Part shown: positions 6,537-58,330 of the stretch, piece by piece
Numbering within the stretch: the first letter of the stretch is position 1
Layout: each line of letters starts with the position of its first letter
Assembly (NCBI GenBank): GCA_964463965.1
Contig: CAYXED010000002.1
Span: 155,387-219,386 of the forward strand
DNA length: 64,000 nucleotides
Reading direction: 5' to 3'
Source: an uncultured Nitrospiraceae bacterium
Lineage (GTDB): Bacteria > Nitrospirota > Nitrospiria > Nitrospirales > UBA2166
Program-made: the position numbers and the translations under genes
The notes under the pieces: model-generated
Database searches by the model: none
Told to the model about the DNA's origin: nothing
Seen by the model: the letters and a program-made list of their open reading frames with translations, nothing else

Positions 6537-6563
6537 ATTCCTATATCAAAGGGAACCGATAGA

Positions 6564-7550
6564 GTGATTAAGGTTGGCATTATAGGTTTTGGAAAAATGG
6601 GACGTATACGTTATGACACAATTCTTGATGATAGTGAAGCAAGGGTTGTTGCTATTGCAGAGCCTAGCCAAGAAATTAAACTGCCTAGAGTTAAGTTATA
6701 TTCTGACCCTGAAGCAGTAATTCGCTCCCCAGATGTTGATGCAGTATTTATTTGCACACCAAACTATCTAAATCATTCATTAACCTTACAAGCATTAGCA
6801 GCAAATAAGCATGTGTTTTGTGAAAAGCCTCCAGCGTTTTCTTCAAAAGATGTGGAGCAGGTTATTGATGCTGAGAGGATATCCTCTGGTATTACGCTTA
6901 TGTATGGGTTTAATCATCGCCATCACGATAGTATAAAATTTGCAAAAGATTTAATTGATTCTCAATCTCATGGGCGCTTGTTATGGATGCGTGGACGCTA
7001 CGGAAAAAGTGTCGATGAAAGTTTTTATCAGAATTGGAGATCAAAAAAGGAGTTTGCTGGGGGAGGAATATTAATGGATCAGGGGATCCATATGGTAGAT
7101 CTTTTTCTCATGATGGCAGGAGACTTTCATGATGTGAATGCATATGTATCAAATGTCTATTGGAAATTAGATGTCGAAGATAATGTTTTTGCAATTCTTC
7201 GTAATGATGAAGGGGTTGTCGCTTCATTGCATTCTACCATGACACAATGGAGACATTTGTTCTCTTTAGAAATGTTTTTGGAAAAAGGATATATTGTTAT
7301 TAATGGGCTGTTGACTTCTTCTGGGACATATGGTGAAGAAGCGGTAACAATAGCAAAAAATAGAACAACCGCTCCTGCCGCTGCATGGAGTGATGAAGAA
7401 CACATACGTTTTGAGGTAAATAATTCATGGAAGTATGAAGTTCAACATTTCTTTCAATCAATTAGAGATAAGACGCCTATACAAACTGGAAATTCTCAAG
7501 ATGCACTAAAATTGATGCGTGTAATTGACAAGATTTATGCACAGGACTGA
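6564..7550 (+). CDS. Gfo/Idh/MocA-family NAD(P)-dependent oxidoreductase
   Basis: 328 aa with GIIGFGKMGR Rossmann loop, VFCEKPP, FGFNHRHH and GGGILMDQGIHMVDLF. It is a clear paralogue of 37049-38101. Confidence 0.9.
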   Translation: MIKVGIIGFGKMGRIRYDTILDDSEARVVAIAEPSQEIKLPRVKLYSDPEAVIRSPDVDAVFICTPNYLNHSLTLQALAANKHVFCEKPPAFSSKDVEQVIDAERISSGITLMYGFNHRHHDSIKFAKDLIDSQSHGRLLWMRGRYGKSVDESFYQNWRSKKEFAGGGILMDQGIHMVDLFLMMAGDFHDVNAYVSNVYWKLDVEDNVFAILRNDEGVVASLHSTMTQWRHLFSLEMFLEKGYIVINGLLTSSGTYGEEAVTIAKNRTTAPAAAWSDEEHIRFEVNNSWKYEVQHFFQSIRDKTPIQTGNSQDALKLMRVIDKIYAQD

Positions 7551-26351: not shown

Positions 26352-27539
26352 ATGCCTGAGAAGTCAATGCCTCACACAAAAATTCCCTTGAGTGCTCCAG
26401 AGCTCAGTGGTAATGAATGGAAATATGTCAAGGAAGGTCTTGATTCTGGCTGGGTATCATCTGTTGGACCTTTTGTTGATCGGTTTGAATCAGAATTAGC
26501 TCAATATGTTGACGTAGCGCATGCTGTGGCTATGGTAAATGGAACGGCCGCACTCCATATAGCTTTACAAGTTATAGGGGTGAAGCCTGACGACGAGGTT
26601 CTTGTTTCCAATCTCACATTTATCTCCCCTGTAAACGCAATACGATATTGTCAGGCACATCCAGTACTTATGGATGTACATCCTGATACGTGGCAGATAG
26701 ACCACAATAAACTAGATGAGTTTTTAGAGCATAATTGTGAAATTAGAGGAGATGAATGTTTTAACCGTTTATCTGGGAGACGTGTTCGTGCAATTCTTCC
26801 CGTTCATATTCTTGGACTTGCTTGTGAAATTGATGTGATCATGAATATTGCAAAACGTTATCATTTGCATGTTTTAGAAGATGCAGCTGAGGGTATGGGG
26901 GTACGCTACCGTGGACGGCATGTAGGTACCTTTGGGGATATAGGCGTGTTTAGTTTTAATGGGAATAAAATTATGACTACTGGTGGGGGGGGGATGCTCG
27001 TCACCAATGATGAAGAGAAAGCTAAACATGCACGCTACTTATCAACGCAGGCAAAGGATAACCTAGTCGAATCTATACATAATTGTGTTGGGTATAACTA
27101 CAGATTAACTAATATCCAGGCCTGTATTGGTGTAGCTCAACTAGAGCAGCTTGATGAGTTTGTCTCAAAAAAACGCACTATTGCTTCACAATATAGTGAG
27201 GCATTTCGAGAGCTACCGCAGGTGTATGTCATGCCTTCCCCTCCGCATACAGAACCAAGCTACTGGTTATATACAATTCTTCTCGGAGAATCTTTTAGGA
27301 TCGAAGATCGTAAGGCTATTATTGAGAGGTTGAATCGGAGTGGAATTTCTGCAAGACCGTTATGGCATACGATTCACAACCTTAGGCCATACCGTAATTG
27401 CCTTTCTTATAAAGTTCAATGTTCTGTGGCATTATATGAACGAGGAATTAGTCTTCCCTCAAGTGTTAGTCTTAAACAGCACGAAGTTGCTGCCTGTATT
27501 GATGCTGTTCACGACAGTGTCAAATCTCTTTTAACTTAA
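26352..27539 (+). CDS. legC: DegT/DnrJ/EryC1-family aminotransferase (LegC-like)
   Basis: 395 aa with the PLP lysine in FSFNGNKIMTTGGGGM. The start codon directly abuts the upstream stop. Confidence 0.75.
   Translation: MPEKSMPHTKIPLSAPELSGNEWKYVKEGLDSGWVSSVGPFVDRFESELAQYVDVAHAVAMVNGTAALHIALQVIGVKPDDEVLVSNLTFISPVNAIRYCQAHPVLMDVHPDTWQIDHNKLDEFLEHNCEIRGDECFNRLSGRRVRAILPVHILGLACEIDVIMNIAKRYHLHVLEDAAEGMGVRYRGRHVGTFGDIGVFSFNGNKIMTTGGGGMLVTNDEEKAKHARYLSTQAKDNLVESIHNCVGYNYRLTNIQACIGVAQLEQLDEFVSKKRTIASQYSEAFRELPQVYVMPSPPHTEPSYWLYTILLGESFRIEDRKAIIERLNRSGISARPLWHTIHNLRPYRNCLSYKVQCSVALYERGISLPSSVSLKQHEVAACIDAVHDSVKSLLT
26985..26993 (+). repeat. G9 homopolymer inside the LegC-like coding sequence
   Basis: Direct count gives ggt ggg ggg ggg, encoding GGGG of TTGGGGM. 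It is the longest G/C run I found in the window. Confidence 0.95.
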
Positions 27540-27564: not shown

Positions 27565-29652
27565 ATGGCAGTTGTTTTTATTGAGCACCTTTCGTTGCGT
27601 GTGTGGTTCTTCAATGTATGGCCACATTTGGTCGTGAGGCGTTTGAGTGGCGCTGCAAGGGTAGAACAATGTTTTGTTTTTGACGCAAATCAATGTTCAC
27701 TATGGCTGGCAGGTGTGATTTCACGGATGCTTGGCTGTAAGGTATTGAGGTTAAAATTTAGGCGTGTAGATGTGCAGGATGATGCTGGAAATATGATTGA
27801 AGAACGATTGAGGTTTTTTGACTTATTTGAAACACAAGAAGCAATGAGAGATATTTTCAGGGCTTCGCTAGCACAATATGACTTTTACTCACCCATTAGA
27901 ACTTTTCTTGAAAAGGAGTTTGTTGCAGCTGTGAGGCGACATGTGCTACTCGTGCAGGTTTCTTTATGGAAAGCAAAGAAAATACACTGTGCTGAAACAC
28001 CAACACTATTTATTGCATGTGAGAGCGGATTTTCTGCGATCGCTGCATATGCAAAACTTCATGGTGTTCAGGTTGTCGGATTTCGAAAGCCTTGGAGACC
28101 AATCAATTTCTTAAGGCATCTGGTCGGATGGGAAGGAGTCCCTCTTTTTCGTTCTATACGGCATTATCTAGCTGTTCTTTTTATTTTACTGCGATGGTGG
28201 TTGACTAAAAATCCTAGAAGTTGCTCAGGCTTCGAATTAAAGCCTGCAGGAACAAAACAGCTTGATGATGATCAAGGGTTAAATCAGAAAATTAAATTAG
28301 CTCTCCAGCAATATGGCCAATTGCACCTAGAAAGCCCTGAAAAGGCTTCTGACCTTTTCTTTTGGCAACAATCAGAAATTTTAGCTGAAGACATGCTTGT
28401 ACTTTTGAACTCTCGGCGTTCCATTCAGGATGAACAGGGAATGGATGCTGCTGGAATTTCTAGACTTGCATTGTCACCTCAAGGGCTTATCACTTCAAAG
28501 ACCCCTTCGTATATTTTTTGGTCAGATATTCAGAATAAAAGACTGCCTTCTCGTAATGGCCTTCTTTCTTCTCTAGAATCACTGTGGCTCACTAGTAAAA
28601 TTAATGCCTATCACGAGATGAAGTCTTACTGGAAAACACTGTTTTCTACTGAGCAGGTAAAAATTTTTTGTACGTGGCAACGATTTAATGCGCAGCACTG
28701 TCCTATCACTGATGCTTTGAGAGAATGTGGAGGGATTATGGCCATGTATCCTCGTGCATATAATCCTCACCCATGCCCGCTCACAGCTGTGTCAATTGAT
28801 GTGTGTTTTTCATATTCAAAGTTGGATGCTGATGTTGAACGTCGATCGTATTCGAATATCCCTTATCATGTTGTCACTGGTTTTATTGGGGACCACAGGT
28901 TTTCTCTTGTGAAACCTGAAGCCAATCGTGTGCGAATGATGTTGCAAGGTAATGGTGCTAAGAAAATAATTGCGTTGTTTGATGAAAACTCAGGTGACGA
29001 TCCACGGTGGCATACAGACCACGAATTTACCAAAGGCAACTATATTGTTTTGCTCGAGAAAGTTCTTCAGGAGCCATGGCTTGCTTTGGTTATCAAACCA
29101 AAAGTTCCTGGAACTCTCCGTCGTCGACTTGGTGATGTTACTCATATTTTGGATAGAGCAATTGCGACGGGTCGATGTTATATCTATGAGGAGAGTGGGA
29201 CCGCTACGTCCTATTCGCCTGCGATTGCAGCATTGTCCGCTGATATTGCTGTGCATGCTCATTTATGTGCAGGTACTGCTGGAGTTGAATCAGCGTTGGC
29301 AGGAGTGCCTACTTTATTGGTTGACCGGGAAGGATGGTCCGTCAGTCCTCTCTATGAATTGGGGGTAGGCCGTGTGGTGTTTCGAGATTGGGATACTTTG
29401 TGGAATGCCTGTTTGGATCATTGGGCGAGCCCTGGTGGGATACCAGGTTTTGGTAGTTGGGCATCGATAATCAATACAATTGATCCTTTTCGTGATGGAC
29501 GTGCTGCCGAAAGGATGGGTACTTATCTCAAATGGATCCTTGATGATTTGAAGGATGGGCTTTCCCGTGAGATGGCGATGGCTAATGCGGCAGAACGCTA
29601 TTGTATGATCTGGGGACAAGATAAAATTTCAGAAGTTTCTCGACTGGTATGA
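27565..29652 (+). CDS. Hypothetical protein, 695 aa (candidate novel glycosyl/nonulosonate transferase)
   Basis: Long uninterrupted ORF with an ATG start and no motif I recognise. It lies immediately downstream of the PtmE/LegB/LegC block. Confidence 0.6.
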   Translation: MAVVFIEHLSLRVWFFNVWPHLVVRRLSGAARVEQCFVFDANQCSLWLAGVISRMLGCKVLRLKFRRVDVQDDAGNMIEERLRFFDLFETQEAMRDIFRASLAQYDFYSPIRTFLEKEFVAAVRRHVLLVQVSLWKAKKIHCAETPTLFIACESGFSAIAAYAKLHGVQVVGFRKPWRPINFLRHLVGWEGVPLFRSIRHYLAVLFILLRWWLTKNPRSCSGFELKPAGTKQLDDDQGLNQKIKLALQQYGQLHLESPEKASDLFFWQQSEILAEDMLVLLNSRRSIQDEQGMDAAGISRLALSPQGLITSKTPSYIFWSDIQNKRLPSRNGLLSSLESLWLTSKINAYHEMKSYWKTLFSTEQVKIFCTWQRFNAQHCPITDALRECGGIMAMYPRAYNPHPCPLTAVSIDVCFSYSKLDADVERRSYSNIPYHVVTGFIGDHRFSLVKPEANRVRMMLQGNGAKKIIALFDENSGDDPRWHTDHEFTKGNYIVLLEKVLQEPWLALVIKPKVPGTLRRRLGDVTHILDRAIATGRCYIYEESGTATSYSPAIAALSADIAVHAHLCAGTAGVESALAGVPTLLVDREGWSVSPLYELGVGRVVFRDWDTLWNACLDHWASPGGIPGFGSWASIINTIDPFRDGRAAERMGTYLKWILDDLKDGLSREMAMANAAERYCMIWGQDKISEVSRLV

Positions 29653-29705: not shown

Positions 29706-30530
29706 ATGGCTAAAGAGGATTTGAGGGCAGCGTGGCAAGAAACATCTCATGCACAATACTTTGATGCATGGGCAGAATTTAGCAATAATAGGTTGCGTGG
29801 GGTGTGTGAAAGTTTTAATGAGGTTAGGTCTTTTTTGAAAAATAAGCACACAATTCAGGGGAGAGATTTACTTGAAATTGCCTGTGCAACTGGAGAGTTC
29901 AGTCGTTATATAAACACGTATCATTCTGAATTCCACTACAGGGGACTTGATATATCTGAACCTGCAATTCATCGAGCAAGAGCAAAGTATCCGACTGCCA
30001 GCTTTGACTTATGTCGGCCTGATCTCTCAGATGTTGTGTCATCCGGTATTAGCCCCACGGTCGTATGGGCGCGTGATGTCGTCCATCATCAACCAGATCC
30101 CTTTGAGTACCTCTCAACCTTGTTGTCGATTGCGAAGGAGGTCACCATTCTTCGTATTCGTACTCGAGACAATGGTTCGAGTATTATAGACCCAGAGATA
30201 TCTTGTCAGTGGCACTATAATCATTGGGTCCCCTACATCATACTAAATATTGATGAAGTTATTGGGTTCATTCAAAAAACTATTTCGGTAAAAAAAATAT
30301 TTGTTGCAAAACGATATGTTCAGCTTGGTGGGTTATATAATCGTTTTGTACCGAAAGATTGTTACTACCCTGAGACAGGTACCGCAGAAACTGCTCTGTA
30401 TATAGAGCATTCAAGTGTTTTGGTGAATAGTCCTGAGATTGTTGTTTCTCAGAAGGAAGATACTGATTATGTTGCTCCGCTGTGGTTGCGAGGGGTGACA
30501 TATATGCGGCGTAAGTATTTTTTAAAATAA
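29706..30530 (+). CDS. Class I SAM-dependent methyltransferase-like protein
   Basis: 274 aa with LLEIACATGEFS (motif I-like) and RDVVHH. ggtgaggag RBS upstream. Confidence 0.65.
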   Translation: MAKEDLRAAWQETSHAQYFDAWAEFSNNRLRGVCESFNEVRSFLKNKHTIQGRDLLEIACATGEFSRYINTYHSEFHYRGLDISEPAIHRARAKYPTASFDLCRPDLSDVVSSGISPTVVWARDVVHHQPDPFEYLSTLLSIAKEVTILRIRTRDNGSSIIDPEISCQWHYNHWVPYIILNIDEVIGFIQKTISVKKIFVAKRYVQLGGLYNRFVPKDCYYPETGTAETALYIEHSSVLVNSPEIVVSQKEDTDYVAPLWLRGVTYMRRKYFLK

Positions 30531-30625: not shown

Positions 30626-31807
30626 TTGGAAGATAAGTTTGAAGTTATTAATGTAGGGGATAAGGCCGACATTACTCATATCATTTCTGAGAATGATGTT
30701 GACCGATATGCAGATATTACTGGGGACACTAACCCCCTTCATATGAGTGAGGAGTATGCTTCGACGACATCGTTTAAAAAGCGAGTTGTCCATGGGATGC
30801 TGACAGCATCATTTATTTCCAACATCATTGGAACCAAGCTCCCAGGGACTGGGGCTCTATGGTATGAGTTGAACATTAGGTTTATTGCACCTGTGCGTAT
30901 TGGTGATGAGATCACAGTGCATGCAGAGGTTATAAGAAAATCACGCGCTTTACGTGTTGTATCATTGGACATTCACGTACAACTAAAAAACTCTCAACGA
31001 GTAATTGAAGGACAGGCAAAAGTAAAAATATTGGAGCAAAAAAAAAAAGGTGAAGCCATCATGAATTCAGGAGCGGTAATTATTACAGGGGCAAGTCGTG
31101 GAATTGGTGCAGCAACGGCACGTTTATTGGCGTCTACTGGAATTCCTGTTGTTGTTAATTACCTGAAAAGTGAGGAGAAGGCACGTGCATTGGTTAATTC
31201 TCTCGCACAGGACGGCCATCAGGCAATTGCTGTTGCGGGGGATGTTTGTTCCTCTCAGGATATGATTGGTCTTGTTGAAGCTGCCATATCTAAATTTGGG
31301 TCACTTAGAGGTATTGTCAACAATGCTTCAGCTTACCCTCAAAGTAAAGCTTTCGATGATTTAAGCTGGAGTAATTTTCAAGAGCAAATTGATGTACAGA
31401 TCAAAGGGGCTTTTCATTTATGCCAGGCAGCAATGCCATGGTTTTTGAAACAGGGGAGCGGCTCAATTGTTAACATAGGATCTATTTTTTCTGATGGCAT
31501 TCCTCCTTCGTTTTTAATGCCATATGTGGTTTCGAAAGCGGCGTTAAATGCGTTTACGAAATCACTTGCTGCAGAGTATGGGCCAAAAAATATTAGAGTA
31601 AATTCTGTTGCTCCAGGGATGACTGATACCGATTTTATTGCAGATGTTCCTGAGAAGACACGGATGTTGAACAAAATGCAGGCCCCACTTCGCCGATTAG
31701 CTGAACCAGAAGATACTGCTGGGGCAGTGGCATATTTGTTAAGCCATCAGTCAAAATTTGTTACTGGGGAGACAATTAGAGTTTGTGGTGGGATTGTGAT
31801 GTGCTGA
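30626..31807 (+). CDS. MaoC-like (R)-hydratase/dehydratase fused to a FabG-like SDR
   Basis: 393 aa. Residues 1-140 carry the hydratase-2 motif ADITGDTNPLHMSEEYAS. Residues 150-393 carry IITGASRGIGAATA and YVVSKAALNAF. The TTG start is preceded by ggggag. The fusion depends on the length of the A11 tract. Confidence 0.8.
   Translation: MEDKFEVINVGDKADITHIISENDVDRYADITGDTNPLHMSEEYASTTSFKKRVVHGMLTASFISNIIGTKLPGTGALWYELNIRFIAPVRIGDEITVHAEVIRKSRALRVVSLDIHVQLKNSQRVIEGQAKVKILEQKKKGEAIMNSGAVIITGASRGIGAATARLLASTGIPVVVNYLKSEEKARALVNSLAQDGHQAIAVAGDVCSSQDMIGLVEAAISKFGSLRGIVNNASAYPQSKAFDDLSWSNFQEQIDVQIKGAFHLCQAAMPWFLKQGSGSIVNIGSIFSDGIPPSFLMPYVVSKAALNAFTKSLAAEYGPKNIRVNSVAPGMTDTDFIADVPEKTRMLNKMQAPLRRLAEPEDTAGAVAYLLSHQSKFVTGETIRVCGGIVMC
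31038..31048 (+). repeat. A11 homopolymer at the MaoC/SDR domain junction
   Basis: Direct count gives caa aaa aaa aaa (QKKK). It is the longest homopolymer I found in the window. Confidence 0.95.
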
Positions 31808-31830: not shown

Positions 31831-33639
31831 GTGTACAATTTGACCTATGCAGAAATCCAGGCAGAGCTTGCAGGGCGGGATCTTTCCTGGTTACAAAAAT
31901 TTAACATAGCCGTTTTGAGAAATATTACTGTTGAGTCGATTGAGCCGCTATTGAGATATGAAGCAGCTCACTTAGGCCTCAATGCGGCGGTGTCTTTTGG
32001 TCAATTTGACAATATCTTCCAAGAGACTGTTGGAGAGGACGAAGAGTTACTACAATCAGCTGATTGTATTTTAGTTTTTACCCATCTTGAAACTCTTTCA
32101 CCTGCATTTTCTATGAGTTTTTCTTCTTTAGGAAAAGATGACATCAAGGGTGAGCTTGAGCGAAATTTTGAATATTTCAGGAGTGTTTTAGCTGGGATTA
32201 GGAAAAAAACTGAATCAGTCGTTCTGTGGCATGGCGTAGTTGCGCCAGCACATCCATCGTTTGGAATTGCTGATTGGATTGTTGAATGTGGGCAACGAAA
32301 AACTATAAATCAACTGAATGAATTGTTACGAGAAGCTTTGAGCGAAGTAAAGAGTGCATATTATGTAGATATGGATGCGTGTGCCGCTCGTGTGGGTCAT
32401 GAGAATTTTTTTGATGCTAGGTTTTGGCATATTGGGAAAGCACCGTATCACCGCAGAGCCCTTATGGAAATTGCGAGGGAAGATTTTGTATTTATTCGTG
32501 GGTTTATAGGAAAAACAAAAAAATGTCTTGTGCTTGACTGTGATAATACGCTGTGGGGTGGGATTCTTGGCGAAGATGGGATTCAAAATATCCAGCTTTC
32601 TCAATCACATCCTGGTTCATCGTTTTGGGAGTTCCAACGAGAAATAGTCAATCTACATAATAGGGGAGTTTTGATAGCACTTTGCAGTAAAAACAATGAA
32701 GCAGATGTCTGGGAAGTTTTTGATACCCATCCCGACATGGTGTTGAAGCGGGAGCATATTTCTTCGGCTCAGATTAATTGGGAAGACAAGGCTAGCAATA
32801 TTAAGCGAATTGCTGATGAGTTGAATATTGGACTTGACAGTCTCGTATATCTCGATGACTCAGCCTTTGAAATTAATTTAATTGAATGTGAGGTGCCAGA
32901 GGTAATGGCGATACAGCTGATGCCTGAACAAGCGGTGAAATATAGAAAAATTTTGTCTTCCGGAGGATGGTTCGACCGTCTAAGTGTTACTGAGGAAGAC
33001 AAACAGCGTGGAGCAATGTATCGTGCAGAAATCAAACGAAAAAAATTACGTGGCCAAACTACAGATTTAACAGAGTATTATAGATCTTTAAATATGAACT
33101 TAGAAATACGGTTTATTACTGAGGCTACATTACCTCGCATTACACAGTTAACACAAAAAACCAATCAGTTTAATTTGACTACCAAGCGCTACACTGAAAC
33201 TGAAATTCATAGTTTTATGACGTCCAAAGAGCATGATATCTTAGGCGTTCGCTTGAATGACCGTTTTGGTGATTCAGGAATTATAGGAGTAGGAATTCTC
33301 GATCGTAGCGGACATCCTAATGAGGCTAGGATCGACACTTTCTTATTGTCGTGCCGTGTATTGGGACGGGGTGTTGAGGACATGGTTCTTGCCCACCTTA
33401 TGCGTTTGGCCGCTGCGCGGGGAGTCTCAAGAGTTGTGGGTGTTTATGTGCAGACTAAAAAAAATGAGCAAGTTAAAGAGTTTTATCCTCGTCATGGGTT
33501 TATATCTGAACCTCTCAGTCTAGAGATACAAGAGGGGAGAGGGCTTTCTTCTAATCTCTTCTCTGCAGATCTTGGAGTGTATAGTAGCAATGTCCCTGAT
33601 TTTTTTGATTCAGTAATTTCAGATGTTGACTATGTTTGA
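31831..33639 (+). CDS. FkbH-like HAD-IIIC phosphatase/acyl-loading enzyme with C-terminal GNAT-like region
   Basis: 602 aa with LVLDCDNTLWGG (DxDxT), LCSKNNE and YLDDS. GTG start. Confidence 0.8.
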   Translation: MYNLTYAEIQAELAGRDLSWLQKFNIAVLRNITVESIEPLLRYEAAHLGLNAAVSFGQFDNIFQETVGEDEELLQSADCILVFTHLETLSPAFSMSFSSLGKDDIKGELERNFEYFRSVLAGIRKKTESVVLWHGVVAPAHPSFGIADWIVECGQRKTINQLNELLREALSEVKSAYYVDMDACAARVGHENFFDARFWHIGKAPYHRRALMEIAREDFVFIRGFIGKTKKCLVLDCDNTLWGGILGEDGIQNIQLSQSHPGSSFWEFQREIVNLHNRGVLIALCSKNNEADVWEVFDTHPDMVLKREHISSAQINWEDKASNIKRIADELNIGLDSLVYLDDSAFEINLIECEVPEVMAIQLMPEQAVKYRKILSSGGWFDRLSVTEEDKQRGAMYRAEIKRKKLRGQTTDLTEYYRSLNMNLEIRFITEATLPRITQLTQKTNQFNLTTKRYTETEIHSFMTSKEHDILGVRLNDRFGDSGIIGVGILDRSGHPNEARIDTFLLSCRVLGRGVEDMVLAHLMRLAAARGVSRVVGVYVQTKKNEQVKEFYPRHGFISEPLSLEIQEGRGLSSNLFSADLGVYSSNVPDFFDSVISDVDYV

Positions 33640-33666: not shown

Positions 33667-33906
33667 ATGACTATTAAAGACCGTGTGATTAAAGTTGTGA
33701 GTATGACGCTCCAAGTGCCAGCGAGCAGTATTAATGAAGCTTCATCACCAGACAATATTGAGCAATGGGATTCGATGCAGCACATGAATCTTATTTTGGG
33801 GCTTGAAGAAGAGTTTTCTGTACAATTTACAGATCAGCAAGTTGTTGATCTTTTAAATGTTGAGTTAATCGTGATGACGCTTGTAGAGTTGGGGGTTAGT
33901 GATTAA
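33667..33906 (+). CDS. Acyl carrier protein
   Basis: 79 aa, acidic, with an ACP pattern and a candidate phosphopantetheine Ser in EQWDSMQHMNLI. Confidence 0.8.
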   Translation: MTIKDRVIKVVSMTLQVPASSINEASSPDNIEQWDSMQHMNLILGLEEEFSVQFTDQQVVDLLNVELIVMTLVELGVSD

Positions 33907-45240: not shown

Positions 45241-46227
45241 ATGAGCGCGACTTTTTGGAAGGGCCATAAGGTATTTGTTACCGGAGCAACTGGAATGGTT
45301 GGTTCATGGCTGGTCAAGCAGTTGTTGAGTGCCAAAGCTGATGTAGTAGCGTTGATTCGAGATGCAGATCCTCATTCAGAGCTTCTTAGGAGTGGGGATC
45401 TGCATCGTCTATCTGTCGTAAATGGAGCATTAGAGGATTATCATACAGTTGAACGTGCCATTAATGAGCATGAGATTGATACAGTATTTCATCTTGGAGC
45501 CCAGACAATTGTAGGTGTTGCTCATCGTTCACCTCTGCAGACATTTGAGGCAAATATTCGTGGTACTTATAATTTACTTGATGCATGTCGAGTACACGGA
45601 GAAAAGGTAAAGCGAGTAATAATTGCTTCAAGTGACAAGGCATATGGAGCACAGGAGAATCTTCCTTATACTGAGGCTACTCCTTTGACAGGTAATCACC
45701 CTTATGAAATTTCAAAAAGTTGTGCTGATAGGCTCGCACAAGCATATCATCATACATATGGTTTGCCTGTCACCATCGCACGATGTGGGAATGTTTATGG
45801 TGGAGGTGATCTAAACTGGAGTCGAATCGTTCCAGGAAGTATCAGATCGTTCTTTCTTGGAGATTCACCTATCATTCGCAGTGATGGAACCTATGTAAGG
45901 GATTTCATATACGCAAAAGATGCAGTATTAGCCTATTTGACTCTTGGGGAAAAGCTCACAAATAACGATGTCTGTGGGCAGGCTTTTAATTTTAGCAATG
46001 AAACACCACTCACAGTTCAGGAAATACTATCAATAATTCAGAAAGCAATGGGATGTGAAGATATTAAACTAGATATACGTAATGATTCAAAAGGAGAGAT
46101 ACATTCACAATATCTTTCCGCTAAAAAATCTAAAGATATTTTAAAATGGAAACCTACATATACGCTTGAATCAGGTTTAGCAGAAACCATTGAATGGTAT
46201 AAGAATTTTCTTGAAGAGAGGGTGTGA
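45241..46227 (+). CDS. rfbG: CDP-glucose 4,6-dehydratase
   Basis: 328 aa with VTGATGMVGSWL and YEISKSCADR. It lies immediately downstream of rfbF. Confidence 0.9.
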   Translation: MSATFWKGHKVFVTGATGMVGSWLVKQLLSAKADVVALIRDADPHSELLRSGDLHRLSVVNGALEDYHTVERAINEHEIDTVFHLGAQTIVGVAHRSPLQTFEANIRGTYNLLDACRVHGEKVKRVIIASSDKAYGAQENLPYTEATPLTGNHPYEISKSCADRLAQAYHHTYGLPVTIARCGNVYGGGDLNWSRIVPGSIRSFFLGDSPIIRSDGTYVRDFIYAKDAVLAYLTLGEKLTNNDVCGQAFNFSNETPLTVQEILSIIQKAMGCEDIKLDIRNDSKGEIHSQYLSAKKSKDILKWKPTYTLESGLAETIEWYKNFLEERV

Positions 46228-46676
46228 TGATTGAAGGAGTACTAGTTCATTCACTTAAGCAGTTTCCAGATGAACGTGGAAGTGTCATGCATATGCTTCG
46301 TTCGGACGCCCCTCATTTCCAAAAATTTGGAGAGATTTATTTTTCCGTTGTGTACCCTGGGGTAGTCAAGGGATGGCATCTTCACAAGGAAATGACACTA
46401 AATTATGCCGTTATTTCTGGAAAAATTAAATTGGTTCTTTACGATGACAGAGCTAACTCTTCCACTCACGGGGAGGTAAATGAGTTATTCATAGGGGATT
46501 CAAATTATGTTTTAGTACAAATTCCTTTTGGCATTTGGAATGGCTTTAAGGGGGTTGGAGTAACTCCGGGAATAGTCGCAAATTGTTCGACGATACCTTA
46601 CCGGGAAGATGAAATTGTTCGCCGAGATCCCTTTGATCCTTCAATTCCATACACTTGGGATTTAAAACATCAATGA
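46224..46676 (+). CDS. RmlC-like cupin sugar epimerase (4-keto-6-deoxyhexose 3,5- or 5-epimerase family)
   Basis: 150 aa with FPDERGSVMHM and GEIYFSVVYPGVVKGWHLHKEM. The start (GTG 46224 or ATG 46227) overlaps the upstream gene by 1-4 nt. Confidence 0.75.
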   Translation: MMIEGVLVHSLKQFPDERGSVMHMLRSDAPHFQKFGEIYFSVVYPGVVKGWHLHKEMTLNYAVISGKIKLVLYDDRANSSTHGEVNELFIGDSNYVLVQIPFGIWNGFKGVGVTPGIVANCSTIPYREDEIVRRDPFDPSIPYTWDLKHQ

Positions 46677-47539
46677 AAAAAAAAGTTCTTATTGTAGGTG
46701 GTAGGGGAATGTTAGCCTCAGACTTTGAAAAGACTGCTCTTGCACAGGGGCATGATGTTTTATCGCTTTCTCACCAAGATCTTGACATCACAAGCCCGCA
46801 GTCTGTGCAGAAAACTATACAAGACTTTACTCCTTGCTGTGTTCTTGATGCAGCTGGCGTAGATGTTGATACATGTGAAATTGACCCAAATCATGGCTAT
46901 CGGACTCATACGTGGGGAGCAATGCTCCTTGCGCAGGCCTGTGAGCGCATTGGTGCCACATTTGTTTATGTCAGCTCATGTGGCTTATTTGGAGATGACC
47001 TAGTATTTCATTCTGAGTACGACTCAGTAGTCTTAAAAACAAAATACTCCAAATCAAAGTACTTTGGTGAGCTGGAGGCAAAAAACTGGTGTCGGCGAGT
47101 ATTTATTATTAGGTGCGGATGGTTATTTGGAGGAACACCAGATCACCGAAGAAATTTTGTTGTACAGCGTATTAAAGAAGCACAAAGCAAAAATGTGATT
47201 AACAGCGCTGGAGATAAGTATGGTAGCCCTACACTAACGAGTGACTTGTCTGAAAAAATTCTCCAGCTTCTTGAAACTAATCTCTATGGAACTTACCACA
47301 TTTCAAATGTAGGAGGTTGTTCGAGATATGAATATACATCCTTCATACTTCATACCTTTGGGCTGGGCACCCATGTTGACAAAGTTGACTCCTCTTCATT
47401 CCCTCGTCCTGCTTCAACGCCTAACTCCGAAATGCTTGAAAATGCAAATCTTCAATTTTCAAATATTGGTGTTTTAACGCCCTGGCAAGAGGCAATTGAG
47501 CGTTATATCAGAACATTGAAAGATAAAACGTTTGTATGA
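46673..47539 (+). CDS. RmlD-like 4-keto-6-deoxyhexose reductase (SDR)
   Basis: MKKKVLIVGGRGMLASDF. ATG 46673 makes an ATGA overlap with the upstream stop. Confidence 0.75.
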   Translation: MKKKVLIVGGRGMLASDFEKTALAQGHDVLSLSHQDLDITSPQSVQKTIQDFTPCCVLDAAGVDVDTCEIDPNHGYRTHTWGAMLLAQACERIGATFVYVSSCGLFGDDLVFHSEYDSVVLKTKYSKSKYFGELEAKNWCRRVFIIRCGWLFGGTPDHRRNFVVQRIKEAQSKNVINSAGDKYGSPTLTSDLSEKILQLLETNLYGTYHISNVGGCSRYEYTSFILHTFGLGTHVDKVDSSSFPRPASTPNSEMLENANLQFSNIGVLTPWQEAIERYIRTLKDKTFV

Positions 47540-49680: not shown

Positions 49681-50949
49681 ATGATTCATGGTTTTGCGTG
49701 GATTCTTCTCCTCTATAGTTTTCTCCCAATTATTTTGGGCATGAAGTTTGTGCGAGGAACGCGCATGAGTCTTGCCTTTATTGCAGTAATGGGTTTTCAC
49801 CATGTTATTGCAGTATTAAATTCTTTTGTCTCCACGGTGAGAGGTGCTGGAAAAGATGGAGAGCGGTTTCATTACATAGCAGATGGGATAGCTCAAAATC
49901 AGGATTTTTATTTTTCTATTGGGCCTGATTTATATCACAACTTTCTTGCTATTTCTTATTTCGTTTTTGGGAGCTCTCGGTTTTTGGGCGCAGAGCTTTC
50001 AGTAATGGCATTTGGATTTTCGTTTCTATTGTTAGTAAAGCTTATGGATATATTGGAAATTAGTCGGTACCGTGTGAGTGTCTTGCTTTTATTTGGGCTA
50101 CTTCCTACGGCCTTAATTCACACGTCAGTTACACTTAGAGAGTCGTGGGAAATTTTATTCTTCATGTCTACGGTTTATTTTGGGTTGCGTTACCAGTTTT
50201 ATAGAAAGTGGAAATATATTTTTCTGGCAATAGCTGCTGTAGCTGCTTTTGGTAGCCTTCATCATGGGATGCTTGCTTTTTCTGTGTTTCTGCTTCCTTG
50301 TGTGCTTCTTTGGCCAATTGGGCATCGTAGTATGTCGAGAGCCTTTGTAACTCGGCCACGTGCTATTTTTGCGCTGTTAGGTTGTTTTGGAGCGCTTGCA
50401 GTAGCTCTCGCTCTAACTACCAAAAATTTTAATGTTGAGTTAGCATCAAGCCTAATGCAAGGGGAAGTCTTAGAATATTCATCAGGATTTAGAGAAGGCA
50501 CTGCTACTAGTCGCGCAACATATGATGCACCTCTTGAGCTATCTTCAGTTTCTGGTTTTTTGCTTTCTTTTGCCATGATTATTCTCCATTATGTACTAGA
50601 GCCTTTTCCATGGAAGATTATGAATATAGTTGATTTATACGCATTTTTTGAGGTTTTACTTAGAGTGCTTCTTTTCATGTTTTCATGGTGGGCAATAACT
50701 CAAGAGCATGGTGCAAAGAAACAGGTTATGAAAATGTTGCTTGTTTTATATGTTGTACTTTCAATCATTTGGGCTCTTGGGACGACAAACTATGGTACTG
50801 CAATTAGGCATCATCTTGTAGGTTATTGGATCATTCTTCTTCTTGGAGCTCCACAAATGTTTCGTGCTATTAGTGCTTTACATCTTGTTGTGTTTCCACC
50901 TCTTGCTCGAGTTCAAAAGTGGTATCGGAACTCTCTTCCAAACCCCTAA
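49681..50949 (+). CDS. Multi-pass membrane protein, O-antigen polymerase/ligase (Wzy-like)
   Basis: 422 aa with about 10-12 hydrophobic segments and one larger loop (residues ~255-290). It sits among glycosyltransferase genes. Confidence 0.55.
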   Translation: MIHGFAWILLLYSFLPIILGMKFVRGTRMSLAFIAVMGFHHVIAVLNSFVSTVRGAGKDGERFHYIADGIAQNQDFYFSIGPDLYHNFLAISYFVFGSSRFLGAELSVMAFGFSFLLLVKLMDILEISRYRVSVLLLFGLLPTALIHTSVTLRESWEILFFMSTVYFGLRYQFYRKWKYIFLAIAAVAAFGSLHHGMLAFSVFLLPCVLLWPIGHRSMSRAFVTRPRAIFALLGCFGALAVALALTTKNFNVELASSLMQGEVLEYSSGFREGTATSRATYDAPLELSSVSGFLLSFAMIILHYVLEPFPWKIMNIVDLYAFFEVLLRVLLFMFSWWAITQEHGAKKQVMKMLLVLYVVLSIIWALGTTNYGTAIRHHLVGYWIILLLGAPQMFRAISALHLVVFPPLARVQKWYRNSLPNP

Positions 50950-50981
50950 AATGGTTTTTTCAAAGTAAGGGATAGATTGTC

Positions 50982-52943
50982 ATGTGTGGGATTGTTGGGT
51001 TTTTTGATTTAGCCAAACGATATAGTGCCGATAGATCTTTGGAAATTATGAAGGTGATGTCAGAGAAACTTTTTAATCGTGGGCCTGATGATAGTGGTAC
51101 TTGGATAGACAGTATGGATCACGTCACCTTAGGACATCGTCGACTCAGTGTTATTGACCTCTCTCCACAGGGTAGGCAGCCGATGCTTTCGTCTACTGGA
51201 CGCTATGTAATTGTTTACAATGGAGAAATTTATAATTATCAGAAAATCCGTCTTGAGCAGGAAGCAAATGGCTACTCCTTTTCAGGTTCTTCAGATACAG
51301 ACGTACTTCTAAATACAATAGAGCAGACCGGACTTTTCGAAACATTATCTCGCCTGGTTGGAATGTTTGCTTTTGGGTTGTGGGATCGTGAACAAAAGAA
51401 ACTTCATCTGGTACGAGATCGCATTGGTATTAAGCCTCTGTATTATGGTTGGGCAGGGAAAAACTTTTTATTCGGGTCTTCATTGCAGGCTTTGAGGGCT
51501 CATCCACAGTTTGAGAAGAAAATTAATAATGAGGCAGTGGCTCTTATGTTGCGCTACGGGTCTGTTCCAGCTCCGTTATCTATTTATGAAAACATTTTTA
51601 AGTTATTGCCCGGTTCCGTATTAACTGTTAGCCATTTGGAACTAGAAAAGAAAGAATCCGGTGTTGTCGTGCCTTATTGGTCACCTGAAAGTATTGTAAG
51701 GCAAGGTATAGAGTCTCCATTTGAAGGTAATGATGAAGATGCTATTGATACTTTAGAGGACCTTCTCAAAGATGCTATAGCACAGAGAATGATTGCTGAT
51801 GTTCCTCTAGGAGCATTTCTTTCTGGAGGTGTTGATTCTTCCACAGTTGTTGCACTTATGCAGGCACAGGCTACCAACCCTGTAAAGACGTTTACTATTG
51901 GTTTCCAAGAACAAGCATATAACGAGGCAAAATATGCTAAGGATGTGGCTCGACACTTGGGTACTGATCATCATGAGCTATATGTTACGCCGCAAGATAC
52001 CCTCTCTGTTATCCCGAAGTTACCTTTATTATACGACGAACCATTTTCAGATTCATCTCAGATCCCTACTTACCTTGTATCAAAGTTAGCGAGAACAAAG
52101 GTTACAGTAGCACTATCTGGGGATGGAGGAGATGAATTGTTTGGTGGCTATAATCGTCATATCTGGGGGCCGCGTATCTGGAAGAGATTTGGGTCCGTTC
52201 CTTTTTCATTAAGAAAAGCAGGCTCTGCTGCAATTAATCTTATTTCACCTGTTACCTGGAATAAGATAGCTTATAGCGCACAATCATTGTTTCCTAATAT
52301 TGATCTTCCGAGGGCACCTGGAGATAAATTGTACAAAATTGCAAGTGTTTTAGAGTCTCCAACGTCTCAGCAGGTCTATGAGCAACTAGTATCGCATTGG
52401 GGAAACTCTGAAGTATTAGCATTAAAGTCACTGGAGCAGCAGAAAAAAACTGTCGATCAAGGTTCAAGTTTTGAATTTAAAGATATGTCGGAGATGATGA
52501 TGTATCGCGATTTGGTGTCTTACCTTCCAAACGATATTTTGACAAAGTTGGATAGGGCAAGTATGGGTGTTAGTTTAGAAGCGAGAGTGCCTATTCTTGA
52601 CCATCGTGTGGTTGAATTTTCATGGAAGCTTTCAGGAAAATCTATGAGAATTAGAAATGGCACAGGGAAATGGTTGTTGAGGCAGGTTCTTCATAGATAT
52701 GTGCCTATGTCACTGATTGAGAGGCCAAAAGTAGGTTTTGGTGTTCCACTTGATCATTGGTTGAGGGGCCCTCTTCGAGAGTGGGCGGAATCGCTTATTG
52801 AAGAATCTCGATTAGAGCGGGAAGGGTTTTTCGATCCCAAAATAGTTCGTGAAAAATGGAACTCACATCTATCAAAAAGTCAAAATTTGCAGCATCAGTT
52901 GTGGGATATTCTTATGTTTCAAGCGTGGTTGGAAGCGAACTGA
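50982..52943 (+). CDS. asnB: Asparagine synthase (glutamine-hydrolysing)-family amidotransferase
   Basis: 653 aa with the MCGIVGF Ntn nucleophile and FLSGGVDSS PP-loop. Confidence 0.9.
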   Translation: MCGIVGFFDLAKRYSADRSLEIMKVMSEKLFNRGPDDSGTWIDSMDHVTLGHRRLSVIDLSPQGRQPMLSSTGRYVIVYNGEIYNYQKIRLEQEANGYSFSGSSDTDVLLNTIEQTGLFETLSRLVGMFAFGLWDREQKKLHLVRDRIGIKPLYYGWAGKNFLFGSSLQALRAHPQFEKKINNEAVALMLRYGSVPAPLSIYENIFKLLPGSVLTVSHLELEKKESGVVVPYWSPESIVRQGIESPFEGNDEDAIDTLEDLLKDAIAQRMIADVPLGAFLSGGVDSSTVVALMQAQATNPVKTFTIGFQEQAYNEAKYAKDVARHLGTDHHELYVTPQDTLSVIPKLPLLYDEPFSDSSQIPTYLVSKLARTKVTVALSGDGGDELFGGYNRHIWGPRIWKRFGSVPFSLRKAGSAAINLISPVTWNKIAYSAQSLFPNIDLPRAPGDKLYKIASVLESPTSQQVYEQLVSHWGNSEVLALKSLEQQKKTVDQGSSFEFKDMSEMMMYRDLVSYLPNDILTKLDRASMGVSLEARVPILDHRVVEFSWKLSGKSMRIRNGTGKWLLRQVLHRYVPMSLIERPKVGFGVPLDHWLRGPLREWAESLIEESRLEREGFFDPKIVREKWNSHLSKSQNLQHQLWDILMFQAWLEAN

Positions 52944-52947
52944 GGCA

Positions 52948-54087
52948 ATGAAAAAACCATGTGTTATTTTCGTAGCTAACCGTGGGTATGGTCTGTTTAG
53001 TTCTCGCTTGATTTTGATGAAATATTTTTTATCTCACGGTTGGACAGTGGTTGCTGCAGCAGCTCCGGATATATACTTAGAAAAATTGAACGATGTTGGT
53101 ATTACTATTGAGCCTGTGCCGTTCTACCGAGGAGGACTCTCTTTGGAGAACGACTGGAAGGCTTTTGAAAAATTACTTCGCGTCTACAAGAAATTCTCTC
53201 CTCATTTGGTACATCATTTTCAGGCAAAGCCCATTATTATGGGAACTATAGCCGCAAAAAAAAATTGTAAAGCAAAGATTGTAAATACTGTGACAGGCTT
53301 GGGACATGCATTTATCCATGGAGGTATAGTCAAGTATCTTGCTTCATTGGGGTATAGGTTGTGTCTCAGTCGTAGTGATATGACTGTATTTCAGAACCAC
53401 GATGATCTTAATTTTTCTCTTACAAAGAAGTGGGTTTCTATAGAAAAAACAAAATTGATAATAGGCTCTGGAGTTGATATTCAACGTTTTAAACCGACAC
53501 AAATTTTTGATTATAAATCTACCCCTCGTATTCTTATGGTTGCTCGACTGTTGTGGCAAAAGGGAGTATTAGAGTTTGTAGAGTCCGCAAAACTACTTAA
53601 GAAAATCTTTCCAAATGTTTTATTTCAGTTAGTTGGTGAACGAGACCTTATTCACCCTGATGCCGTATCAGAAAAGTGGATTCAAGATGTTGTTGACCAG
53701 GAGATAATTCAATATCTAGGGTATATCACGGATATTTATTCAATCCTTTCTTCTTCCTATCTTGTCGTACTTCCTTCCTATCGTGAAGGTTTGCCTCGTA
53801 TACTTCTAGAAGCGGCAGCATGTGGGGTTCCTGCAGTTACAACTAGTGCGCCGGGATGTAGGGAGGCAGTAGTTGATGGTGAAACGGGATGGTTAGTTCC
53901 TCCAAGAGATAGTGGGGCATTAGCCCAAGCAATTTCAAGAGTGATAGAGGATCCAGTGTTAAGGTCTAGGGCGGGAAGGTCTGCACGAAAAAGAATTGAA
54001 AAAATGTTTGACATTCAAATCATTGCAGAGCAACAGATTGCAGTTTACCGGGAGATTGGTATTCAGATTGATATGGCATTAGAGTGA
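52948..54087 (+). CDS. Family 4 (GT-B) glycosyltransferase
   Basis: EGLPRILLEAAACGVPAV (E-x7-E). ATG 52948 lies just after the asnB stop. The track's 5' extension overlaps asnB. Confidence 0.9.
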   Translation: MKKPCVIFVANRGYGLFSSRLILMKYFLSHGWTVVAAAAPDIYLEKLNDVGITIEPVPFYRGGLSLENDWKAFEKLLRVYKKFSPHLVHHFQAKPIIMGTIAAKKNCKAKIVNTVTGLGHAFIHGGIVKYLASLGYRLCLSRSDMTVFQNHDDLNFSLTKKWVSIEKTKLIIGSGVDIQRFKPTQIFDYKSTPRILMVARLLWQKGVLEFVESAKLLKKIFPNVLFQLVGERDLIHPDAVSEKWIQDVVDQEIIQYLGYITDIYSILSSSYLVVLPSYREGLPRILLEAAACGVPAVTTSAPGCREAVVDGETGWLVPPRDSGALAQAISRVIEDPVLRSRAGRSARKRIEKMFDIQIIAEQQIAVYREIGIQIDMALE

Positions 54088-54971
54088 TGAACAGTCCACG
54101 CTACAGTAATTTATATCATCAGCCAGTTATTATCATCGGGGCAGGGCGGTCAGGTACAAATATGTTGAGAGATGTTTTAGTCCAACTGCCAGGGTTTGGA
54201 ACTTGGCCGTGTGATGAAATCAATTATATTTGGAGGCATGGGAACGTACGCTATCCTTCTGATGAATTTCTTCCTGAGCAGGCATTATTTGAGGTGAAGA
54301 AATATATTCGAGAGTCATTTTCAAATTTGGCACGAAAGCATCGTTTAACATATGTGGTAGAAAAAACCTGTGCTAACTCTCTTCGTGTTGATTTTGTGAG
54401 ACAAGTTTTTCCAAATGGTAAGTTTATTTTTATTGTTCGAGATGGGAGAGATGTTATTGCTTCAGCAATGAAGAGGTGGACTGCAAGTTTTGATCTTCCA
54501 TATGTATTGAGAAAAGCCTGGTATGTTCCAATATCGGACCTTCCGTATTATGGGGTTAAATATTTTTTGAATCATCTTCATAGAGCATGGTCTCGTGATG
54601 GAAAGCTCGCCTATTGGGGCCCATGTTTTGAGGGGATGAAGGATATATTGCATTCTAAATCATTGTCAGAAATTTGTGCGATGCAATGGGTTCGTTGTGT
54701 TGAGAAAGCAGAGCAGGGTTTGTGTAAAGTTGACCCATCAAGTGTATATCAGTTGAGGTATGAAGATTTTGTCAAACAACCAAGCTTGGAAGTTGATCGC
54801 TTGGCGACGTTTTTAGGGATTGATGCTCCTTCAACAGAGTGGTTTCAGCAGTGCTTGATGGATGTTAAACCTCAGTATATTGGAAAGTGGAAAAGTGAAC
54901 TTGATAATAGGGATTTATCTCGTGTGCAACCTCTCATTCAGAGCACATTGCAGCGGCATGGCTATGTATAG
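54084..54971 (+). CDS. Sulfotransferase-family protein
   Basis: 295 aa with IIIGAGRSGTNMLRD (5'-PSB-like) and FIFIVRDGRDVIAS (3'-PB-like). GTGA overlap with the upstream gene. Confidence 0.8.
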   Translation: MMNSPRYSNLYHQPVIIIGAGRSGTNMLRDVLVQLPGFGTWPCDEINYIWRHGNVRYPSDEFLPEQALFEVKKYIRESFSNLARKHRLTYVVEKTCANSLRVDFVRQVFPNGKFIFIVRDGRDVIASAMKRWTASFDLPYVLRKAWYVPISDLPYYGVKYFLNHLHRAWSRDGKLAYWGPCFEGMKDILHSKSLSEICAMQWVRCVEKAEQGLCKVDPSSVYQLRYEDFVKQPSLEVDRLATFLGIDAPSTEWFQQCLMDVKPQYIGKWKSELDNRDLSRVQPLIQSTLQRHGYV

Positions 54972-55014
54972 AAGAGTGTGCCATAGGCTGTTAGGGTAGG
55001 GTGGCTGTCTATGT

Positions 55015-56169: not shown

Positions 56170-56204
56170 CGAGTAATATTTAAAATGATGCCATATTGTA
56201 AAAC

Positions 56205-57443: not shown

Positions 57444-58030
57444 TTAAGAGACTTTTTGATGTGAGCATGGCTTTGACTGGGCTTGCTTTGCTGTTTCCTC
57501 TTTTGATTGCCGTGGCATGCCTTATAAAAATAGATTCCCTCGGTCCAGTGATTTTTAGGCAAGAACGTATCGGTCAGCGTTTTCAGCCCTTCATTATATA
57601 CAAGTTTCGTACAATGATTGCTGATACTTCGTCACAGGAAACTCAGGGATTGAGAAGTCAAAAACATCGAATCACTCATATTGGGAAATGGCTGCGTAAA
57701 ACAAAAATTGATGAACTGCCTCAACTACTGAACGTGTTCAAGGGAGACATGAGTTTAGTCGGTCCTCGTCCTGAAATCAGATTATATGTTGAAAGGTTTC
57801 GCAGTGATTATGAAGAGGTCCTTACAGTACAGCCTGGGATGACCGATCTTGCATCACTCAAATATCGGGATGAGGAGCGTGTTCTTGAGCTTTCTGTAGA
57901 TCCAGAAGAAGAATACATGCATAAGATTTTGCCAGAAAAAATTAGATTGGCTAAGGAATATATGAAACATTCGTCATTTCTTTTTGACTTAAGGCTAATA
58001 TTTCGAACATTGTTATGTCTTAGATATTAA
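57440..58030 (+). CDS. Small monotopic phosphoglycosyl transferase (PglC/WbaP C-terminal type, bacterial sugar transferase)
   Basis: 196 aa with N-terminal re-entrant helix KRLFDVSMALTGLALLFPLL and KIDELPQLLNVFKGDMSLVGPRP. Confidence 0.9.
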   Translation: MIKRLFDVSMALTGLALLFPLLIAVACLIKIDSLGPVIFRQERIGQRFQPFIIYKFRTMIADTSSQETQGLRSQKHRITHIGKWLRKTKIDELPQLLNVFKGDMSLVGPRPEIRLYVERFRSDYEEVLTVQPGMTDLASLKYRDEERVLELSVDPEEEYMHKILPEKIRLAKEYMKHSSFLFDLRLIFRTLLCLRY

Positions 58031-58062
58031 GTTTAGTAATATTTTTAGAAAATTCCCTGTAT

Positions 58063-58097
58063 TCCCGATGGTTTTATTGACCGTCGGGATTTTTTTT
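58063..58097 (+). terminator. Rho-independent terminator
   Basis: tcccgatgg (58063-58071) pairs with ccgtcggga (58081-58089). This gives 9 bp including one G-U, a 9-nt loop and then T8 (58090-58097). It starts 33 nt after the sugar-transferase stop. Confidence 0.8.
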
Positions 58098-58330
58098 GCT
58101 TTGAGTATAATCAGGTGTTTTAATATTTTTGTATCTATAGTAGTATTTTTTAGAAATAACTGTGTTATCTTAGATTCTGAACAATATAATACCTGTGGTA
58201 TGTCTATGAGGGGGATTGTAAGACATTTGTCTCTATTCAGGTTGATGACTTGAATCATTTTTAGTTTTTTGATGCGATGCTCTGATTATTTTCATAACGC
58301 GAAGGGAGTAGCCTTAACTTAGGAATAGGT

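Follow-up and report, generated by a model that had tools for sequence, protein, structure and literature searches.

An A11/A10 length difference in the linker of a MaoC-SDR gene separates one fused enzyme from two overlapping genes in assemblies of an uncultured Nitrospiraceae bacterium

A/T runs of about 9 nt or more are visibly selected against in many bacterial genomes, and they are likely hypermutable in replication (PMC1088944). At the level of expression, the A9 run of Thermus dnaX gives about 50% of short product (PMC1088944), the A11 run of Citrobacter rodentium tssM1 shifts frame during transcription at about 20-25% and gives two protein forms, both of them required (PMC4256274), and ribosome sliding on an A11-encoded K3 insert in the E. 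coli PURE system leads to a robust truncated product, of which A9 or A10 give little (PMC4363877). Homopolymer frameshift polymorphism is also a known kind of variation. Here we describe a case whose unusual aspect is the outcome, which is gene fusion versus gene fission rather than on versus off. It was found in a stretch of 64,000 nucleotides from an uncultured Nitrospiraceae bacterium (contig CAYXED010000002.1, positions 155,387 to 219,386; hereafter the window, whose own coordinates are used below), where a run of eleven A joins a MaoC-like (R)-hydratase to a FabG-like short-chain dehydrogenase/reductase (SDR). In the window both domains form a single protein, and in public assemblies that are otherwise identical to it one A is missing and the same domains are encoded by two overlapping genes. 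The elements of the gene and of its junction are the following:

30626..31807, + strand: fused open reading frame (ORF) of 393 aa with a TTG start, MaoC-like (R)-hydratase plus FabG-like SDR according to Pfam; the identical ORF is used by the gene callers in three assemblies.
30626..31036, + strand: hot-dog/MaoC hydratase domain, residues 1-137 (PF01575, 7e-23), with the hydratase-2 motif ITGDTNPLH (D34, H39) and a confident AlphaFold2 hot-dog fold.
31038..31048, + strand: A11 homopolymer, codons caA AAA AAA AAA, that is Q138 and K139-K141; the sole difference between otherwise identical assemblies (A11 or A10).
31047..31053, + strand: AAGGTGA, a Shine-Dalgarno-like (SD-like) motif that ends 7 nt 5' of the internal ATG and contains the TGA 31051-31053, stop of an A12 form.
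31061..31064, + strand: ATGA; its ATG encodes Met146 of the fusion or, in A10 assemblies, opens the 248-aa SDR cistron, and its TGA (31062-31064) closes the 145-aa MaoC cistron of those assemblies.
31061..31807, + strand: SDR domain or cistron, with the cofactor motif TGASRGIG, the NNAS motif and S286-Y300-K304 (PF13561, 1e-59); the 248-aa product is public as P0123.

The preliminary description of this DNA had placed an A11 tract, the longest homopolymer of the window, exactly at the MaoC/SDR junction, and both statements hold. The segment 31030-31070 reads TTGGAGC-A11-GGTGAAGCCATCATGAATTCAG, with the run at 31038-31048, and the frame of the ORF crosses it as caa aaa aaa aaa ggt gaa gcc atc atg (QKKKGEAIM). 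The run corresponds to residues 138-141, and since the Pfam matches MaoC_dehydratas (residues 19-107) and adh_short/adh_short_C2 (150-390) end and begin on either side of these residues, it falls exactly between the two domains. The next longest runs in the 64 kb are of 9 nt (G9 at 26985-26993, A9 at 46676-46684 and at 53256-53264, and T9 at 61779-61787). The effects that had been anticipated for a change of a single base were reproduced by simulation. The A10 form behaves exactly as described: it ends in ...EQKKKVKPS* after 145 aa, and its TGA 31062-31064 overlaps the ATG 31061-31063 in the manner of ATGA-coupled genes. The A12 form, for which an immediate stop had been expected, ends in ...EQKKKR* at the TGA 31051-31053. 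Both off-frames terminate within 1-4 codons, beside the restart codon. At the level of peptides, the fusion reads ...EQKKKGEAIMNSG... at the junction, while in the A10 form the hydratase would end in ...EQKKKVKPS and the reductase would start with MNSGAVIITGASR. With an SD/anti-SD duplex energy of -8.5 kcal/mol, AAGGTGA ranks in the top 4.7% of the positions of the fusion gene.

The central point of that description, that the length of the tract decides between one protein and two, can be taken further, because this length differs between datasets and the 145-aa and 248-aa products exist in public assemblies of the same genome. We looked up the hypothetical frameshift products as exact sequences in public collections, and both A10 products were on record, the 145-aa MaoC protein (…EQKKKVKPS) and the 248-aa SDR-only protein. 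The A10 contigs are ENA SAMN10231918 scaffold_13 (353,614 bp) and JGI 3300008629 Ga0115658_1000031 (246,783 bp); in these contigs (L090/L091) the gene callers annotate two genes, 6001-6438 and 6435-7181, with a 4-nt stop/start overlap. Over 12,438 bp, the ENA contig is identical to the window, with 0 substitutions, except for one A absent in the tract. The same absent A is the sole difference found in the JGI contig, which was compared over 43.3 kb (7481-37064 and 50254-64000). Along these 43.3 kb, 18 other long homopolymers (at least 8 A/T or at least 7 G/C) are unchanged, including the G9 at 26985, the A9 at 53256 and the T9 at 61779. Thus two of the three other 9-nt A/T runs, one A9 and the T9, were covered by the comparison across assemblies, and both are invariant. 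The A11 state, in turn, is carried by ENA SAMN10231917 scaffold_4 (586,671 bp) and by Logan SRR8062339, and the fused protein is also recorded at NCBI. Therefore, assemblies of this genome that are otherwise identical differ at the tract, with A10 in some and A11 in others.

A third situation is found in Logan SRR8062340, where the assembly is broken within the tract: contig _10026 (L100) ends in ...GAGC followed by A10, and contig _15263 (L102) starts with A10 followed by GGTGAAG. This is the shape to be expected of an unresolved A10/A11 bubble, since the shared prefix and the shared suffix of a de Bruijn graph would each hold ten A's, and it would fit coexisting reads of both lengths in this run. 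In the same exact look-up of public collections, no products of A8, A9, A12, A13 or A14 were on record; JGI-style versions with an L start and shifted forms of the sister allele were also absent.

The closest allele to the window gene, P0001, shares 98% identity in protein and 97.5% in DNA with it, and four assemblies of different runs carry it (L004-L007). Its tract is A10 followed by GGG; that is, the last A is replaced by G in a synonymous change (AAA>AAG), with no indel, and the fused frame is kept. It follows that the fused frame is conserved at the species level and the homopolymer is not.

The presence of such a run does not call for a special explanation. The AlphaFold2 model of the fusion (pLDDT 85.9, pTM 0.65) shows two confident domains, and pLDDT values below 50 are restricted to residues 140-146, so the tract encodes a disordered linker. 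Lysine codons in the genes of the window are AAA in 62% of cases, AAA-AAA pairs are not avoided, and the probability of A11 given the peptide QKKK is about 0.13, which makes the existence of the run not improbable. The A11 is, in short, AAA-biased coding of a Lys-rich, disordered interdomain linker. Across the aligned homologues the linker varies freely in length and sequence, and is Lys/Glu-rich. Synonymous resampling of each locus revealed no excess of A runs in linkers, either in the window (p=0.17 for the A run) or in the family, whose median was unremarkable. When counts were pooled, linkers contained 15 runs of at least 8 A against 9.8±2.2 expected, a modest excess of about 2 standard deviations among loci that are not independent; outside linkers, runs of at least 7 A numbered 14 against 21.8±3.2 expected, a modest deficit. 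Furthermore, the linker holds the longest homopolymer of the gene in 20 of 63 loci, compared with 6.5% expected by its length, a difference due to the composition of the linker. These A runs are mostly explained by Lys-rich composition together with the codon usage of each gene.

The fusion itself belongs to a large family. A search with the full protein yielded at least 120 homologues with 47-56% identity, from sources that include Thermodesulfobacteriota, Deltaproteobacteria and Omnitrophota. The best 120 are all of about 393-433 aa and carry an N-terminal hydratase and an SDR in one ORF. In an alignment of 26 homologues, D34, H39, the SDR glycine motif, NNAS and S286/Y300/K304 are invariant, and about 67 of the 80 metagenomic loci recovered with the alignment have the fused form. 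The same picture was obtained when 1.84 billion cluster representatives were searched with only the MaoC domain: proteins of about 390-425 aa or truncated fusions made up most of the closest matches, and stand-alone proteins of about 140-160 aa predominated only at lower similarity. A scan of genome contigs with the single protein returned distant SDRs only. The sequence search of the PDB identified FabG 3-oxoacyl-ACP reductases (ACP, acyl carrier protein) as the closest solved relatives of the SDR half; all relatives found in it were single-domain SDRs, and it contained no solved chain with both domains in the hydratase-SDR order. Judged from these relatives, the MaoC-SDR fusion is a genuine, evolutionarily old and widespread bifunctional enzyme.

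Not all relatives are fused. Natural two-gene versions with overlapping cistrons are present in L088/L089 (overlap ATGAGTAA), in L076, in L070/L087 (A8 directly before the ATG) and in L072 (A10 and then ...CAATGA). The split L072 is 72% identical to the fused L029 and L033, both of which have A10 in the linker, and the deletion of one A from the linker run would create an ATGA junction in the fused L029, L033 and L065 (A10), L037 (A8) and L015 (A7). The split versions are scattered among fused relatives, which suggests several independent transitions of fusion or fission. The fused members also show what may be traces of a start site. A Met lies 11-12 residues before the SDR glycine motif (TGxxxGIG) in 51 of 120 homologues, against a background of 3% per position; SD-like pairing upstream of the linker start codon is within the top 5% of the gene in 32% of 44 non-redundant loci; and an SD-like GGAGG or GAGG is often present 5-10 nt upstream of the linker Met across the fusion family. 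Because of this concentration of Met and of SD-like pairing, the linker resembles an intercistronic junction, either a fossil one or one still in use, and the relatives appear to share one geometry, in which an A-rich stretch is followed by an SD-like motif and then by ATG(A). In the A10 form of the window gene both domains are complete: the hot-dog domain gains a tail of 8 residues and the SDR begins with MNSGAVIITGASRGIG, a normal N-terminus for a classical SDR.

A separate observation concerns L083, where positions 1615-1800 show a stop right after the MaoC domain and then an in-frame, degenerate SDR start (…GRVIISGVAKGIAAATELK*) with a premature stop; this could possibly be a decaying copy of the gene pair.

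From the whole of these results, the explanation we favour, and one that we consider reasonably probable, is a real population polymorphism at a slippage-prone linker tract, tolerated because the frameshift is "soft". Owing to its length, the A11 would be a slipped-strand hotspot, and a natural population of a single clone would hold both the A11 state, with the fused gene, and the A10 state, with two ATGA-overlapping genes. At the head of the SDR the junction appears to retain a start codon together with an SD-like motif; many relatives do the same, and some of them are natural pairs of overlapping genes. For this reason the -1 frameshift would be soft, giving a complete 145-aa hydratase and, through translational coupling, a complete 248-aa reductase; such a polymorphism would be tolerated and roughly neutral, rather than an ON/OFF switch. 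On this anatomy the -1 variant is probably still functional, and we infer that the A10/A11 difference is biological and that both the fused and the split forms are working. In addition, if the enzymes of this organism behave like those of E. coli, slippage of RNA polymerase and sliding of ribosomes on A11 would yield some split product from the fused allele. Beside the fusion, some free hydratase and possibly some re-initiated reductase would then come from the A11 allele, and some fusion from the A10 allele.

A broader version of this idea would extend it to the whole family. The MaoC-SDR linkers might keep a functional internal ribosome-binding site (RBS) and start, and lineages, this clone among them, might shift reversibly between fused and ATGA-coupled forms by 1-nt slippage in a Lys/A-rich stretch that is at the same time the A-rich 5' portion of the RBS; both forms would be functional and the shift would tune the hydratase/reductase stoichiometry or channelling. 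We regard this extension as speculative and rather doubtful.

Several points weigh against the soft polymorphism, and most of them lead to a technical origin of the difference. The tract could have a single true length, and A10/A11 could come from polymerase stutter in the library polymerase chain reaction (PCR), from Illumina indels or from bubble popping by the assembler, an explanation that we find unlikely, though far from negligible. Long A/T runs are error-prone, and our conclusions rest on assemblies and not on reads, so that the difference could reflect a homopolymer artefact of sequencing, PCR or assembly. The Logan contigs also break beside the G9 run at 26985, which indicates that breaks at homopolymers can be technical. 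Moreover, the A10 contigs may be one library seen through several pipelines: the JGI dataset may share its library with SRR8062340/SAMN10231918, in which case the A10 observations would be non-independent, and the pairing of SRR runs with BioSamples is itself deduced; a search of the literature for the accessions of runs, samples and contigs gave no result. The homopolymer sequencing error that the preliminary description had offered as its third reading is nevertheless weakened. Each length was reproduced by two different assemblers, and two sibling samples processed by one pipeline (the SPIRE-style ENA assemblies) differ, one having A11 and the other A10. The 18 other long runs, G9, A9 and T9 among them, are identical over the 43.3 kb, and A10 and A11 are the only lengths on record; furthermore, a flip of the consensus requires that a minority length turns into the majority. 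Other objections concern the function attributed to the junction. The slippage figures derive from E. coli, Citrobacter and Thermus and not from this organism, and the function of the split form is deduced from ORF anatomy and relatives alone. The tests for a selected internal RBS were ambiguous, since SD-like energy is enriched in the linkers and codon choice and ATGA are not: the choice of GAG versus GAA codons in linkers showed no shift (z=0.9), and ATGA after the linker Met was not significantly enriched (15 of 32 against a background of 35%).

The remaining explanations accept the tract as biological and differ in what it would be for, or in how it arose. It could be an adaptive contingency locus, in which the tract is kept as a phase-variation switch for the acyl decoration of a surface nonulosonic-acid glycan. 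The gene does belong to a locus for surface-glycan modification, glycan genes are well known for phase-variable tracts (PMC7099621), and here the tract is in a coding region and its length differs in an otherwise clonal background. We nevertheless consider this improbable, as the -1 state leaves two complete ORFs, predicted to be coupled cistrons, and does not truncate the pathway, so that on/off switching would not be expected. The run is interrupted (A10+G) in all four assemblies of the closest allele, per-locus resampling matches the Lys/codon expectation (p=0.17, with a pooled excess of only about 2 standard deviations), which does not speak for a tract maintained or over-represented in relatives, and no A12 "hard-off" form is on record. 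The preliminary description had spoken of a phase-variable or slippage-prone site. Of the three readings it offered, slippage-prone is the one that best fits our results, whereas classical ON/OFF phase variation is not supported, given that the -1 form keeps both domains and that the closest allele is interrupted.

Programmed recoding is quite improbable as well. Here A11 would be a selected slippage or sliding site that fixes how much fusion is made relative to free hydratase (with re-initiated reductase), in the manner of dnaX tau/gamma or tssM1. The run is at or above the experimentally slippery length and exceeds the threshold of 9 A/T taken for such sites, and the off-frames stop beside the restart codon; however, the slip site is conserved neither in the sister allele nor in the family, where linkers vary freely, and no clear selection for A runs at the codon level was found, the pooled excess of about 2 standard deviations coming from non-independent loci. 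RNA folding around the tract revealed no stimulatory structure (z=+1.21), and Rfam gave nothing credible, its two hits, both to a miRNA family and about 220 nt downstream, being below threshold and attributable to chance. A structured recoding signal was dropped on both grounds. No internal promoter-like site was found near the junction. In view of the negative or weak results on codons, ATGA and RNA structure, we make no claim of selection on the tract or on an internal RBS, nor of programmed recoding. Finally, a +1 slip in the tract could have only just joined two ancestral genes in the strain of the window, the "genuine recent fusion" of the preliminary description. ATGA and the SD-like motif persist at the junction, and the two-gene A10 form coexists with the fused one. 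A comparison of orthologous junctions, which the same description had recommended, gives the opposite answer and makes a recent fusion hardly credible: the fused architecture is shared by at least 120 homologues down to 47% identity and by 67 of 80 loci, so the fusion is old; the 97.5%-identical allele, with its A10+G, is also fused; and the closest relatives of the MaoC domain are mostly fusions.

Two other long runs of the window are worth describing. The G9 at 26985-26993 is within the DegT-family aminotransferase ORF 26352-27539 (GGT GGG GGG GGG, Gly4) and is invariant in all the assemblies compared; the Logan contig SRR8062339_42433 starts 4 nt before it, and this run may also be a weak point of assembly or a point of heterogeneity. 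At 46673-46684 the window reads CAATGAAAAAAAAAG, another ATGA overlap between ORF 46224-46676 and an RmlD-like ORF, followed by the A9 (MKKKV...). A slip at this A9 (46676-46684), in a region outside the cross-assembly comparison, would frameshift the RmlD-like gene at codons 2-4.

With regard to its genetic context, the fusion gene is surrounded by a methyltransferase, an FkbH-domain protein, an ACP, a hexapeptide acyltransferase and two more SDRs. The immediate neighbours are:

29706..30530, + strand: S-adenosylmethionine-dependent methyltransferase, the upstream neighbour.
31831..33639, + strand: FkbH-domain/HAD-IIIC protein (NCBIfam TIGR01686 FkbH, 2e-96).
33667..33906, + strand: acyl carrier protein, identified by ACP models.

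The FkbH protein and the ACP form an ACP-linked acyl-modification module inside a glycan locus of the nonulosonic-acid (legionaminic) type. This locus extends along about 58 kb on a single strand and contains two NeuB-type synthases, a LegB-like 4,6-dehydratase, DegT aminotransferases, a CBS-nucleotidyltransferase, a KdsB-like cytidylyltransferase, glycosyltransferases and a sulfotransferase. In such surroundings the MaoC-SDR protein would likely be in charge of the beta-carbon processing of an ACP-bound short acyl group destined for an amino sugar or nonulosonic acid.

Some general features of the window may be added. The + strand carries 54 of the 56 ORFs of at least 150 aa, and positions 1-60223 make up one very large glycan-biosynthesis locus, which also includes a radical SAM/B12 enzyme, an ATP-grasp enzyme, a PtmE-like enzyme and AsnB. 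Base composition is strongly skewed, with 23.9% G against 17.0% C and 31.7% T against 27.5% A. A UvrA-like protein, 67-68% identical to named proteins of Nitrospira, makes a place in Nitrospirota probable for the organism. Between the aminotransferase and the methyltransferase there is a 695-aa ORF (27565-29652) with no match in Pfam or NCBIfam, conserved in all assemblies of the clone.

As to what this means in practice, one base decides whether a pipeline reports a 393-aa "glucose 1-dehydrogenase/FabG-like" protein or two genes, and both versions are already public. The locus also offers a tractable natural system for two questions, the functional equivalence of the fused and split forms and the ease with which one is converted into the other. 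The understanding of phase variation or recoding is unchanged by it, unless the variation proves to be selected.

Among the known systems, the poly-G tracts of flagellar glycosylation in Campylobacter jejuni resemble this one in being long coding homopolymers in glycan-modification genes, with differences of 1 nt within a clone that presumably arise by slipped-strand mispairing. The differences are that here the tract is poly-A, that the frameshift splits a fusion into two complete ATGA-coupled cistrons (the coupling being predicted) and does not abolish the product, and that the tract is not conserved in the nearest allele, with no evidence of selection. The A9 of Thermus thermophilus dnaX, the A11 of C. 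rodentium tssM1 and poly(A) sliding in E. coli share the same kind of slippery sequence, in tssM1 even the same length, and give long and short forms from one gene. In contrast with them, the heterogeneity described here is at the level of DNA or assembly, neither conservation nor a stimulatory structure accompanies it, and the downstream domain would be recoverable by re-initiation.

Regarding the enzyme, multifunctional hydratase-dehydrogenases (peroxisomal MFE-2, the PhaJ and FabG pairs, and the dehydratase-ketoreductase didomains of fatty acid and polyketide synthases) likewise combine a hot-dog (R)-hydratase, with its hydratase-2 motif, and a classical SDR, partners that act on consecutive steps of beta-carbon processing. 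In peroxisomal MFE-2 the order is SDR-hydratase(-SCP2), whereas here it is reversed, hydratase-SDR, and SCP2 is absent; the linker has about 8-10 residues, and the context is FkbH/ACP glycan acylation as opposed to the beta-oxidation of the known hydratase-dehydrogenase enzymes. The A10 state, for its part, corresponds to an ATGA-coupled gene pair, with a 4-nt stop/start overlap and an SD-like motif inside the upstream gene, from which coupling is predicted. As in the fusion and fission of adjacent ATGA-coupled operon genes, both forms coexist in the family, the split forms overlap, and an indel of 1 nt interconverts them. Such events, however, are usually inferred between distant genomes, whereas here one defined homopolymer, which would act as a mutational hotspot, shows both states in genomes with no substitution between them along tens of kb.

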